Part shown: positions 35,888 through 40,895 of the stretch, in pieces
Position numbering within the stretch: position 1 is the first letter of the stretch
How the letters are laid out: each line of letters starts with the position of its first letter
Origin: an uncultured Dictyoglomota bacterium
GTDB lineage: Bacteria > Dictyoglomota > Dictyoglomia > Dictyoglomales > Dictyoglomaceae
DNA: 64,000 bases
NCBI GenBank assembly: GCA_964654465.1
Contig: CAZZIO010000029.1
Span: 1 to 64,000 of the forward strand
Reading direction: 5' to 3'
The notes under the pieces: model-generated
Database searches by the model: none
What the model saw: only the letters and a program-made list of their open reading frames with translations
What the model was told of the DNA's origin: nothing
Translations under genes and position numbers: made by a program

Positions 35888-35962
35888 TGGCTCCTCGGGC
35901 AGGATTCGAACCTGCAACCCGCCGGTTAACAGCCGGCCGCTCTACCGTTGAGCTACCGAGGA
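35888..35962 (-). tRNA. tRNA-Asn (GTT)
   Basis: TCCTCGG/CCGAGGA acceptor stem, GCTC/GAGC D arm, CCGG-CTGTTAA-CCGG anticodon arm, GTTCGAATC, encoded CCA. Confidence 0.98.
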
Positions 35963-36113: not shown

Positions 36114-37457
<1,344 letters not shown>

Positions 37458-37475: not shown

Positions 37476-38612
37476 TCAGAAAAGAGTAAGTTGATTTTTA
37501 GAAGAGGAAGGGCTTTTTCCATTTATAAGAATGAAATTTTTGCACTTTTCTATTGGAATTCCTATTTTCTTTAATTCTTTTAAATCTTTTATCTTATTTT
37601 CTCTTCTCGCTTTGATTATTCTTGAGGCAAAGGCTGGACCTATTCCAGGAATTCTTATGAGTTTATCATATGGTGCAGAGTTTATCTCTATAGGGAAAAA
37701 TTCAGGATGATTTTTAGCCCATACTGTTTTAGGATCTTCATCCGGAGGTAAATTTCCATTCTCATTAAACACAAGTTCTTCTATATCAAAACCATATTTT
37801 CTTATTAGAAAATCAGCTTCATATAATCTTACTTCTCTCCAAGTAGAAGTAGGTGGAAGGTCGGATAAAGGAGTAAGGGGAATAGGCTGAAAAGCGCTAA
37901 AATAGGCTCTTGATAAATGATAATTTTTATAGAGATTGAAGGTAAGGTTAAGAATTTCTTTATCCCTTTCTTGTGATGCACCAACTACAAATTGAGTTGT
38001 TATACCTGCTTTTGTCCTTAACCCCTTTTTATATAATTCTTTTAAAGTTTCCAATTTTTGAAGAAGAAAATTAAAATTCTTTTCAGGCGCAATTTCTTTT
38101 AGATATTTTTCTGATGGGGCTTCCAAATTTATAGAAATTCGATCTGCATATTTTATAGCGGTCTCTATATAATCTAAAGAAGATTCTGGGAGTATTTTTA
38201 AATGAATATATCCTTTAAAATTGTGAACTTCTCTAAGTATTTCTACCGATTTTAGCATTTGTTCCATAGTATATTTAGGTGATTTAGTTATTGCGGAACT
38301 TAAAAATAATCCATCTACCAAATTCTTTCTATGAAGTTCTAAGAATAATCTAACAAGCTCATCTGCTGTAAGAGTTACTCTTTGAAATGGTCTATTAGCT
38401 CTGTTAGCACAATAATAGCAGTTATGAATACAATCATTTGAGAGTAAAATTTTTAAAAGTCTTACTGTCTTTCCATCAGGAAGGACTGTAGGATAGATCC
38501 AACCGCTTATGGATGGCTTTCTTTTTATGGCTTCTTGAGAACATAAAAAGGACCCACATAGATCGAACTTTGCTGATTCTGCTAATATTTCGATTTTATC
38601 GCTTATATGCAT
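37476..38612 (-). CDS. Putative DNA modification/repair radical SAM protein with HhH
   Basis: LKILLSNDCIHNCYYC, GLFLSS, YIHLKI, SINLE, TQFVVGA, RLYEADFLIRKYGF, RIPGIG. Confidence 0.88.
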   Translation of the reverse strand: MHISDKIEILAESAKFDLCGSFLCSQEAIKRKPSISGWIYPTVLPDGKTVRLLKILLSNDCIHNCYYCANRANRPFQRVTLTADELVRLFLELHRKNLVDGLFLSSAITKSPKYTMEQMLKSVEILREVHNFKGYIHLKILPESSLDYIETAIKYADRISINLEAPSEKYLKEIAPEKNFNFLLQKLETLKELYKKGLRTKAGITTQFVVGASQERDKEILNLTFNLYKNYHLSRAYFSAFQPIPLTPLSDLPPTSTWREVRLYEADFLIRKYGFDIEELVFNENGNLPPDEDPKTVWAKNHPEFFPIEINSAPYDKLIRIPGIGPAFASRIIKARRENKIKDLKELKKIGIPIEKCKNFILINGKSPSSSKNQLTLF

Positions 38613-38656
38613 TTTGTCATCTATGAGGGTCCTTTTTTAAAATAAAAAAATATCAA

Positions 38657-38764
38657 TTAAGCCTTTTTAAGTTCTTTTAAAAGTAGCTTTAGCCTTTCCT
38701 TTTTCCTTTTTTCTCTTGCCTTTCTTCTTTTCCTCTTAAGTATTACCCTCCATTGTTTTCCCAT
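38657..38764 (-). CDS. 35-aa highly basic protein, not in the ORF track: MGKQWRVILKRKRRKAREKRKKERLKLLLKELKKA
   Basis: ATG 6 nt after GGGGTG; extended -10 TGaTATAAT at 38805-38813; fills the ftsB/radical SAM gap. Confidence 0.75.
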   Translation of the reverse strand: MGKQWRVILKRKRRKAREKRKKERLKLLLKELKKA

Positions 38765-38818
38765 TTCTTTCACCCCTGCTATAAGTTTAGTTTTATCAAA
38801 TGATATTATATCAAAATA

Positions 38819-39172
38819 CTACTTTTTAAAAAGATCTATTATTTTATCCCAAAGATTTTTCTCTTCTTCTTTTTTCTCAATTATTAGGATTGGCTCTTCA
38901 TTAGGTTTTGCCATAAAAAGTTTTTCTCTTGCAATTTTCTCTATTATATATGGATCATCTGTATTGTAAGCTATCTCTCTTAATTCTTTAACTTTTTTTT
39001 CAAGGACTGATTTTCTTTGATAAAGTTCCTTTAGTTTTTGGGAATAAGTTATATAATCTCTAATCCCCATATATATAGATGGGCTTAGATATAGAAAAAA
39101 AAGAACTAAAAGTATTTTGCTTATAGGATTTCTTTTCTTTCTGTCCTTTTTAAGATATTCTTGCCACCCCAC
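38819..39172 (-). CDS. Septum formation initiator, FtsB/DivIC family
   Basis: Basic N-terminus, one TM, coiled coil, DPYIIEKIAREKLFMAKPNE. Confidence 0.85.
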   Translation of the reverse strand: MGWQEYLKKDRKKRNPISKILLVLFFLYLSPSIYMGIRDYITYSQKLKELYQRKSVLEKKVKELREIAYNTDDPYIIEKIAREKLFMAKPNEEPILIIEKKEEEKNLWDKIIDLFKK

Positions 39173-40895
39173 GATATATTACTCCTCTTTCAGGGTCTAT
39201 AGTTATAATCTCATTATCTCTTAATTTTTCAAAGAGATTTTTGGCTCCAACTATTATACCTAATCCCTTACTTCTCCATGGGATTAATGATGGTGGAATT
39301 TTTTCATCTTCAATAACAAGACCGACTAATTTGTCAAAGAGAGGTTCTATCTCAAGATCATAAGACTTTATCAGTAATATAGCTCCATCTATCTCTTTAC
39401 TAAGAGCTTCCTTAGGGTTTTGAGCTAATATAACCTTGGCGGTTTTGGAATCTCCACCAAGTCCATGTCCTTGTCCTATGATATCACTTATTACATGTAC
39501 CTTTATAAGATTTGTCATACCAGAGATTCCCATGGGTATACCAGCAGTGATTACAACTGTGTCTCCTCTTTTAACATATTCTTTTTGAAGAAGTAACTTG
39601 GTAGATTTTTCAAACATTTCATCGGTAGTGTAAAAAATCTCAGTTAAAAGTGGAATTACACCCCAAGATAGGTTGAGTCTTCTTCTTACTTCAGAAAAGT
39701 GGGTAATGGCAAATATGGGAGCATTGGGTCTATATTTTGATATTTGTCTTGCTGTAAAACCACTATGAGTAGCTGTTACAATTGCTGAAGCTTTTATTTC
39801 TTTGGCTATTTGGCATGTGGAGAAGGTTATAGCTTTAGTTATAGTAGTATTACAATCTGTTTCTTTTAAAAAATCGTCATATGGAAAGCTTTCTTCAACT
39901 TTCTTTGCAATTTTATCCATCATTTTTACGCTTTCTATGGGATATTTACCCATTGCAGTTTCGTTTGATAACATAATAGCATCTGTACCGTCTAATATGG
40001 CATTTGCCACATCACTTACTTCTGCCCTTGTGGGAGTAGGATTACTTACCATAGATATTAACATCTGGGTGGCTGTAATTACAGGTTTTCCTGCTAATCT
40101 TGTTTCCTTTATTATTCTTTTTTGAATTAAGGGAACTTCCTCATTTGAAATCTCTATTGCTAAATCTCCTCTTGCTACCATTATAGCATCTGCTACTTCT
40201 AATATTTCTTTAAAATTATTTACTGCTTCTCTTTTTTCAATTTTGGCTATTACAGGAATTTTGGCATCATGTAATTCAAGGAATTCTTTTAACTCTATTA
40301 TATCTGAAGCTCTTTGCACAAAGGACAATGCAATGTAGTCTACCTTGTTTTCTATGCCAAATATGGTATCTTTTTTATCCTTCTCTGTAAGAGGTGAAAC
40401 TCTTAATTTAGAGTCTGGGAAATTAACTCCTTTTCTTTCTGAAAGATAACCCCCATGAATAATTCCACATACTAATTTGTCTTCTTTTTTATCCATGACT
40501 TTCAATTCTATAAGTCCATCATCTATAAGTATTCTATCTCCAATATTTACATCCTCTAATAGATAGGGGTAGTTAACATAAAGAATTTTCTCGTTGCCTA
40601 TAGTTTCCTTAGGAGTAAGATAGATTTCTTCTCCATCTTTGATAAATATTTTGTCCTTTTCTAATTCTCCTATCCTTATTTTAGGTCCTTGAAGGTCTTG
40701 AATAATAGGAATTGGTTTGTCTAATTCTTCTGAAAATTTTCTTATAAGTCTTATTCTTTCTCCATGGACATTATAATCTCCATGGGAGAAGTTTAATCTT
40801 GCCACATCCATTCCTGCTCTAATAAGTTCCTTTAATACTTCTTCTTTTTCACTGGCAGGACCTATTGTACATACTATTTTGGTCTTTCTAAACAA
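39150..40895 (-). CDS. pyk: Pyruvate kinase with C-terminal swivelling domain
   Basis: KTKIVCTIGPAS, RLNFSHG, IAKIE, MVARGDL, TATQML, PTRAE. Confidence 0.98.
   Translation of the reverse strand: MFRKTKIVCTIGPASEKEEVLKELIRAGMDVARLNFSHGDYNVHGERIRLIRKFSEELDKPIPIIQDLQGPKIRIGELEKDKIFIKDGEEIYLTPKETIGNEKILYVNYPYLLEDVNIGDRILIDDGLIELKVMDKKEDKLVCGIIHGGYLSERKGVNFPDSKLRVSPLTEKDKKDTIFGIENKVDYIALSFVQRASDIIELKEFLELHDAKIPVIAKIEKREAVNNFKEILEVADAIMVARGDLAIEISNEEVPLIQKRIIKETRLAGKPVITATQMLISMVSNPTPTRAEVSDVANAILDGTDAIMLSNETAMGKYPIESVKMMDKIAKKVEESFPYDDFLKETDCNTTITKAITFSTCQIAKEIKASAIVTATHSGFTARQISKYRPNAPIFAITHFSEVRRRLNLSWGVIPLLTEIFYTTDEMFEKSTKLLLQKEYVKRGDTVVITAGIPMGISGMTNLIKVHVISDIIGQGHGLGGDSKTAKVILAQNPKEALSKEIDGAILLIKSYDLEIEPLFDKLVGLVIEDEKIPPSLIPWRSKGLGIIVGAKNLFEKLRDNEIITIDPERGVIYRGVARIS

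Follow-up and report, generated by a model that had tools for sequence, protein, structure and literature searches.

A short gene for a hyper-basic peptide appears to be conserved in Dictyoglomaceae and in at least one unrelated bacterial order

We identified a 35-codon open reading frame in the window (the whole stretch of 64,000 nucleotides of Dictyoglomota DNA analysed here) that is very probably a real protein-coding gene. Its hyper-basic product appears to belong to an unnamed family of 31–53-aa proteins with a patchy but wide distribution. This family is a core gene in Dictyoglomaceae and in one unrelated bacterial order or more. It has no entry in Pfam, NCBIfam or PDB and was recognised from sequence alone; it shows strong purifying selection, a promoter and a Shine-Dalgarno sequence of its own, and near-universal presence in two unrelated lineages. 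The ribosome is our best guess at the partner of the peptide, and we put the probability that the protein is bound to the ribosome or to rRNA at roughly 0.4. To our knowledge, every discovery to date of a tiny basic protein of this kind in ribosomes (bS22, bL37, bL38) began with unexplained cryo-EM density, since gene callers and family libraries miss them.

The small gene and its neighbours

The gene lies on the minus strand at 38657..38764, with an ATG start at 38764-38762 and a TAA stop at 38659-38657. The encoded peptide, MGKQWRVILKRKRRKAREKRKKERLKLLLKELKKA, contains 11 lysines and 7 arginines (18 of 35 residues) together with 3 glutamates, and has a computed pI of 11.9 and a computed mass of 4445 Da. 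A GGGGTG Shine-Dalgarno sequence (38771..38776, minus strand) is followed by the ATG 6 nt further on. An extended -10 element, TGATATAAT (38805..38813, minus strand), starts 6 nt past the stop of the upstream gene, and the end of its hexamer is 40 nt from the ATG. Every checkable detail that the first-pass annotation had given of this arrangement (a K/R-rich frame of 35 codons, 18 of them K/R, a GGGGTG ribosome-binding site, and TGaTATAAT about 40 nt upstream) was accurate. Its remark that the frame is missing from the list of open reading frames agrees with the absence of the exact 35-aa sequence from about 15 billion predicted proteins. Our own listing of open reading frames gives this frame as 38 aa from an upstream GTG; the start that is conserved is the ATG with its Shine-Dalgarno sequence.

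The upstream neighbour is a DivIC/FtsB-like gene (38819..39172, minus strand; Pfam DivIC, E 2.9e-11) with a GTG start at 39172, itself preceded by a pyruvate kinase (pyk) ORF at 39150..40895 on the minus strand. The 3′ end of pyk and the DivIC/FtsB-like ORF overlap by 23 nt on the minus strand, likewise in related loci, which suggests translational coupling of these two genes. Downstream, 44 nt from the small ORF and on the same strand, is a radical-SAM gene (37476..38612, minus strand) that matches NCBIfam TIGR03916 with 355 bits against a cut-off of 343.5. This model describes a putative DNA modification/repair radical-SAM protein of the rSAM_link_UDG type. Further downstream are a 446-aa ORF on the plus strand (36117..37457) with the look, by eye only, of a family-1 glycoside hydrolase, and a tRNA-Asn(GTT) gene (35888..35962, minus strand). 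An Rfam search over the window returned only a tRNA; as the mRNA of the small ORF also folds worse than shuffles (z = +2.0), we rejected a structured-RNA reading of the locus.

Conservation among relatives

Our first six-frame search covered 41 genomes, including 10 of the same family (three genera) and 30 of other families. The small ORF is present in all 10 same-family genomes. Conservation in relatives, on which the first-pass annotation had made its proposal depend, is full: all 10 related loci that are complete have an unbroken frame, always with an ATG start and a length of 33–35 codons. These ten do not include L006, an eleventh locus, which a contig end truncates. Fourteen alignment columns are invariant among the ten peptides.

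The ORF is far beyond chance, and the changes among its relatives point to a constrained protein. Across 45 pairs (Nei-Gojobori), pN is 0.01–0.27 vs a pS of 0.31–1.0, such that synonymous sites are near saturation and the protein is hardly altered; loci L002 and L004, for example, differ by 14 synonymous changes and 1 non-synonymous change. As a frame control, the synonymous share of differing codon pairs is 47% in frame vs 3% and 14% in the two shifted frames.

The signals ahead of the gene are conserved as well. Each of the 10 complete loci has a TATAAT hexamer about 40–50 nt upstream, extended by TG in 8 of them, and all ten have a GGAGG-type Shine-Dalgarno sequence, which also precedes the homologues in other lineages. 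The small ORF's TGnTATAAT element is not listed by a two-hexamer promoter scan because its -35 is poor; support for the element comes from its conservation in relatives.

A search of genome contigs with the A2 profile gave 132 pattern matches, with none confirmed by tblastn, a check unsuited to a low-complexity query of 35 aa. A degenerate DNA pattern was adopted for this reason. It matched 4 records among 185,579 species genomes, 3 of them Dictyoglomaceae; the fourth has its peptide and gene order in common with one of the three genera, g3. The pattern also matched 10 metagenome contigs. All 13 further contigs carry the -10 TATAAT, and pyk and the ftsB-like gene are upstream of the small ORF in 13 of the 13 further loci examined. 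The Dictyoglomaceae-type set comprises 23 loci, with 15 distinct DNA sequences and 13 distinct peptides. In one metagenome contig (L026), the small ORF ends early, at 29 aa (...KERLKMLT), and the usual C-terminal codons follow out of frame; the cause is an indel introduced by sequencing or assembly, or else a frameshift that occurs naturally.

Genera g1 and g2 have the order pyk, ftsB-like gene, small ORF, radical-SAM gene. In genus g3, a gene of about 190–203 aa on the opposite strand lies between the ftsB-like gene and the small ORF, and other genes replace the radical-SAM gene next to it. The placement downstream of ftsB named at first pass is borne out, by direct adjacency in g1 and g2 and by the pyk/ftsB-like genes upstream in the further loci, with one gene intervening in g3. 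The small ORF, its -10 element and its Shine-Dalgarno sequence are kept in g3 despite the changed neighbours. With the -10 element kept in 10 of 10 relatives, g3 included, the earlier proposal of an own promoter stands, and the small ORF appears to be an independent unit. The gene inserted only in g3 starts MSKFEIIDLTLEL... and was seen at loci L007-L011, L019, L022 and L023.

Only two metatranscriptome runs hold parts of the window, and their contigs cannot show ends, strand or level. In a hot-spring metatranscriptome (X2), a 313-nt contig with about 94% identity covers 38634-38920, from the small ORF through its promoter into the final 100 nt of the ftsB-like gene; the flanking genes are covered by no further X2 contig. 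X2 also holds short purine-rich pieces, likely from other organisms. The second run (X1) has one long contig over the whole stretch, which may be DNA. These data give a weak hint that the small ORF is transcribed in a relative.

A wider family

The family as a whole has the N-terminal signature M-[GS]-x-x-[WYH]-x4-K-R-x-R-x-K-x-x-x-K-R-x-K, and the consensus of its full-length homologues outside Dictyoglomaceae is MGKQ[YW]..-EKRKRRK..-KR.K. Members match the profile from residue 1, have a short open frame with an ATG and a Shine-Dalgarno sequence, and bear the mark of protein-level selection. The window peptide itself matches the family profiles with E-values of 3.8e-17 (A2) and 9.6e-14 (A5), being a row of both; independent members, by contrast, turned up in searches with profiles that did not yet include them.

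When 1.84 billion representative proteins were searched with a HMMER profile, only 4 matched (E<=1e-3), 2 of which (P0003 and P0004) are clearly unlike the Dictyoglomaceae forms. This number understates the family because such ORFs are rarely called, and six-frame searches found many more. In 401 genomes searched with the A2 profile and then with A5, full-length matches were found in 9 of 390 genomes from outside the family, representing 8 of 272 other families. Each of them covers the query from position 1 to position 29 or beyond, in open frames of 37–72 aa that begin with an ATG after a Shine-Dalgarno sequence. Three further matches at E<=0.01 (G121, G296 and G386) were partial within longer frames or lacked a start and were set aside as chance. 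Among the 30 other-family genomes of the first 41-genome search, three weak matches had been seen (E 0.04, 0.24 and 3.2). Two are internal to long frames (337 and 556 aa), and the remaining one, from G038, has an open frame of 45 aa and is a true family member by the wider profile.

The family is near-universal in the order of genome G399, which comprises three families with genomes of 3.3–8.6 Mb. There the A4 profile matches 31 of 37 genomes, and 21 of the 22 of high quality, with the first or second query position as the start of every match. Typical sequences from this order are MGKQYNPREKRKRRKRYIKR... Loci with family members span 33–57% G+C. The first-pass suggestion of a lineage-specific peptide in a thermophile is not supported by this distribution, which takes in 8 or more other bacterial families and nearly the whole of an unrelated order with genomes of 3.3–8.6 Mb.

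In an alignment of 22 sequences, M1, K10, R11, R13 and K19 are invariant, K15 and R20 are conserved in more than 90%, and most sequences have W, Y or H at position 5; at other basic positions, K and R swap freely. The invariant arginines are encoded by AGR codons in Dictyoglomaceae and mostly by CGN codons elsewhere. Among 14 other-lineage sequences, the synonymous share of differing codon pairs is 55% in frame vs 5% off frame. The codon switch and the frame-specific synonymous change indicate that the likeness is at the protein level and is not a shared purine-rich DNA composition. The ESM Atlas returned only unnamed clusters. Of the three best, two (one of 35 aa and 78 members, one of 36 aa and 86 members) were common to the window peptide and a member from the other order, a result at the level of a lead only.

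The neighbours of homologues in other lineages vary (HAD nucleotidase-like, thiolase-like, dnaJ and others), and gene context gives no functional clue. No family gene was found in a ribosomal-protein operon, the neighbours being ftsB, the radical-SAM repair gene, and HAD nucleotidase-like, thiolase-like and dnaJ genes. In the other order, the small ORF often follows a same-strand gene of about 190–210 aa (L053, L056, L058, L076, L081, L082) with a ...RVLIDLDGV(I/V)RDF... motif that is HAD-like by eye, and this gene is preceded by one starting ...ALILGSSSGFGAA... Separately, an ORF of 138–142 aa at G000:C34:20030-20122 (L017), with equivalents in G002, G003 and G005, contains a weakly similar basic stretch (E about 0.2–1). 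Kept in four same-family genomes, it is probably an unrelated basic protein.

Predicted structure and proposed role

AlphaFold2 run on A2 predicts one continuous helix over residues 3–34 with a pLDDT of 93.5, and the conserved basic residues lie on all faces of the predicted helix. This arrangement, together with the fixed identity of K or R at particular positions, suggests that the helix is enclosed by a ligand which is highly conserved in its turn. Burial in rRNA would suit such a peptide better than would a role as a DNA-groove binder or a bulk polycation.

We propose that the helix of the 35-aa protein may be buried in a conserved structured RNA, with the ribosome as the best candidate. 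There it would neutralise phosphate charge and stabilise the RNA fold, a mode of action that would resemble that of other very small basic proteins of the ribosome (bS22, eL41, Thx and bL37). Several points speak against a ribosomal role: only 8 of the 272 other families sampled have the gene, it lies outside ribosomal-protein operons, the peptide resembles no solved ribosomal protein in sequence, and so basic a helix might just as well bind DNA or some other RNA. Occupation of the particular h44/h45 pocket used by bS22 and eL41 is unlikely. A fuller version of the proposal is offered tentatively and is doubtful as a whole: the peptides may form a new bacterial family of rRNA-buried micro-proteins, unrelated in sequence to bS22, eL41, Thx and bL37 and part of the core of the ribosomes of Dictyoglomota and of at least one other large order. 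They would then be either a third independent solution at h44/h45 or the occupant of a cavity not yet known to hold a protein.

The literature searched yielded no ribosome structure or proteome of the Dictyoglomus lineage, no paper containing any of four short strings from the family peptides and, among the titles listed, nothing relevant on Dictyoglomus ribosomal or small proteins. Dictyoglomus species are cultivable, and the hypothesis is consequently open to ordinary methods.

Alternative explanations

There is a modest chance that the peptide is a small basic protein with another specific partner, such as an acidic protein or another conserved RNA (tRNA, RNase P, SRP or tmRNA), and that it may share ancestry with the N-terminal part of DUF6800. 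DUF6800 proteins are uncharacterised basic proteins of about 53–62 aa, and the likeness to the family is weak and confined to the first 22 residues (M-G-basic ... R-E ... R-R ... K ... K). When A5 was compared with 7 DUF6800 proteins by hhalign, residues 1–22 of both aligned with a score of 16.3, vs 9.4 ± 2.0 for shuffles, of which 1 in 150 was as high. Among ESM Atlas clusters that bear a Pfam domain, DUF6800 also comes closest to two family members (0.88 and 0.87), the domain being present in 19% of cluster members. However, the HH-suite probability of the alignment is just 6%, and the DUF6800 model (PF20607, cut-off 25 bits) has no match at E<=10 in the peptide, in 15 members or in the six-frame translation of the genome. 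Moreover, DUF6800 proteins have a C-terminal part of their own, ending in an SPF or APW motif, that is missing in the family, and the model matches 7 of 401 genomes overall and 0 of 11 from the window's family (E<=0.001).

A nucleoid-associated or general nucleic-acid-binding peptide, which compacts or protects DNA, or binds RNA non-specifically, is rather improbable; a small nucleoid protein was the alternative raised at first pass. The composition (18 of 35 K/R, pI 11.9) and the single predicted helix would suit such a peptide, as would the position of the family genes, never in ribosomal operons. The invariance of K or R by position across distant lineages points to a well-defined binding site that is itself conserved, as opposed to charge in bulk. 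In addition, the occurrence of the family in genomes of 3.3–8.6 Mb, at loci of 33–57% G+C, argues against a DNA protectant specific to thermophiles.

The first-pass annotation had likened the peptide to eL41 and bS22 and had named Thx as a further family for comparison. The chance that it is a true, extremely diverged member of bS22/mS38 (COX24_C) or of eL41 is slim, and this kinship is largely refuted at the level of sequence. The peptide is of the same size class, starts with MG, has a central run of six basic residues and is predicted to be helical. Nevertheless, Pfam and NCBIfam gave no match for the 35-aa peptide and, for 15 family members, gave only hits of E>=0.2 to one or two members each. 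Neither Ribosomal_L41 (PF05162, cut-off 22.3 bits) nor COX24_C (PF08213, cut-off 23 bits) matched the peptide, the 15 members or the six-frame whole genome at E<=10. The only hit in the genome to Thx (PF17070, cut-off 29.7 bits) was below threshold and elsewhere, at C40:182064-182090 (12.6 bits, E 0.52), and the Thx comparison also came to nothing.

To compare profiles directly, we aligned 14 bS22 sequences (A3) from the COX24_C matches of a survey in which 15 of 151 sampled genomes matched, 10 of them over the cut-off, and 0 of 11 genomes of the window's family. As a positive control, the A3 profile matches 19 distinct PDB sequences (bS22, S22, mS38 and AURKAIP1/COX24, including 7jil_5, 9i5v_10 and 8fmw_V), whereas the family profiles A1 and A4 match 0 at E<=10; a search of PDB with the single peptide returned only a designed helical protein (E 0.18). 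The narrow A2 alignment scored 15.3 against A3 in hhalign, vs 9.8 ± 2.1 for column shuffles, of which 4 of 200 were as high. This signal is gone with the wider A4 (10.7 vs 11.0 ± 2.5; 104 of 200 as high), and we treat it as compositional because it was not reproduced. The A3 motif is M-G/S/P-S-V ... K-K-R ... K-H-K ... R-H, and its hallmarks, Ser3 and the histidine of KHK, are missing from the A4 and A5 family alignments. The nearest Pfam-bearing ESM Atlas clusters do include COX24_C (0.84 and 0.80), again as a lead only. By these comparisons, the family appears to be no recognisable relative of eL41, bS22 or Thx.

COX24_C was found in 0 of the 15 carriers of the family tested, namely 11 genomes of the window's family (including G000), G253, G357, G372 and G399. 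With bS22 in no more than 15 of the 151 genomes sampled, and with carriers from few independent lineages, this absence carries no information. The six-frame survey itself recovered bS22 (COX24_C) ORFs of 23–32 aa in those 15 of 151 diverse genomes (L033-L047), two of them with a GTG start. It adds to the picture of bS22 as a protein far more widespread than annotated.

Lastly, a regulatory leader peptide (uORF) that acts on the gene downstream, or a frame open by chance within a purine-rich spacer, is scarcely credible and already contradicted: the frame is short, lies 44 nt upstream of a same-strand radical-SAM gene and has no terminator-like site within 38400-39300, but purifying selection on its amino acids reaches non-basic positions and spans codon families, the downstream gene varies by genus and lineage, and the RNA of the small ORF is less structured than shuffles (z = +2.0), such that no attenuator-like fold is visible. 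Retention of the ORF in g3, and a hairpin with a T-run directly 3′ of its stop in L007 and L011, likewise count against a leader role.

Comparison with bS22, eL41 and Thx

bS22 is a small-subunit protein of mycobacterial, Bacteroidota and Borrelia ribosomes. The Borrelia report describes it as unannotated there and found only through cryo-EM density, and its authors expected further such proteins (10.1101/2023.04.16.537070). bS22 was reported to be likewise unannotated in P. gingivalis (10.1101/2023.04.16.537070; PMC12123416). According to the same sources, it sits between h44 and h45 and contacts 23S rRNA; eL41, described as a bS22 analogue, and mS38 fill its pocket, possibly by convergence (10.1101/2023.04.16.537070; PMC12123416). 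Because unrelated basic helices can serve the h44/h45 site, the negative sequence comparisons leave room for a protein that works like bS22.

The family resembles bS22/mS38 in size (31–53 aa vs 29–33 aa for bS22), in its MG start, in its extreme basicity and in being helical. Like bS22 as described in these reports, it has a patchy phyletic spread, is missed by gene callers and is encoded outside ribosomal operons (10.1101/2023.04.16.537070; PMC12123416). Unlike bS22, it has an aromatic residue at position 5 and the pattern KR-x-R-x-K...KR, and AlphaFold2 predicts one straight helix where that of Borrelia bS22 is reported to be bent (10.1101/2023.04.16.537070). eL41 likewise consists of one strongly basic helix, a few dozen residues long. 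It differs in that its Pfam model, on which this comparison is based, has no match here, and the motif resemblance raised at first pass involves a different spacing. Thx is comparable as a tiny basic ribosomal peptide, and in the link to a thermophile lineage, and differs in having no match here.

bS22 has been reported to modulate aminoglycoside access to h44, which implies that such peptides can matter for antibiotic action (PMC10081302; PMC12123416). Were the present family not ribosomal, it would still be a conserved core microprotein. If it is ribosomal, it would be one more component in the inventory of the bacterial ribosome and, together with eL41 and bS22, would show unrelated basic helices repeatedly filling pockets in rRNA.
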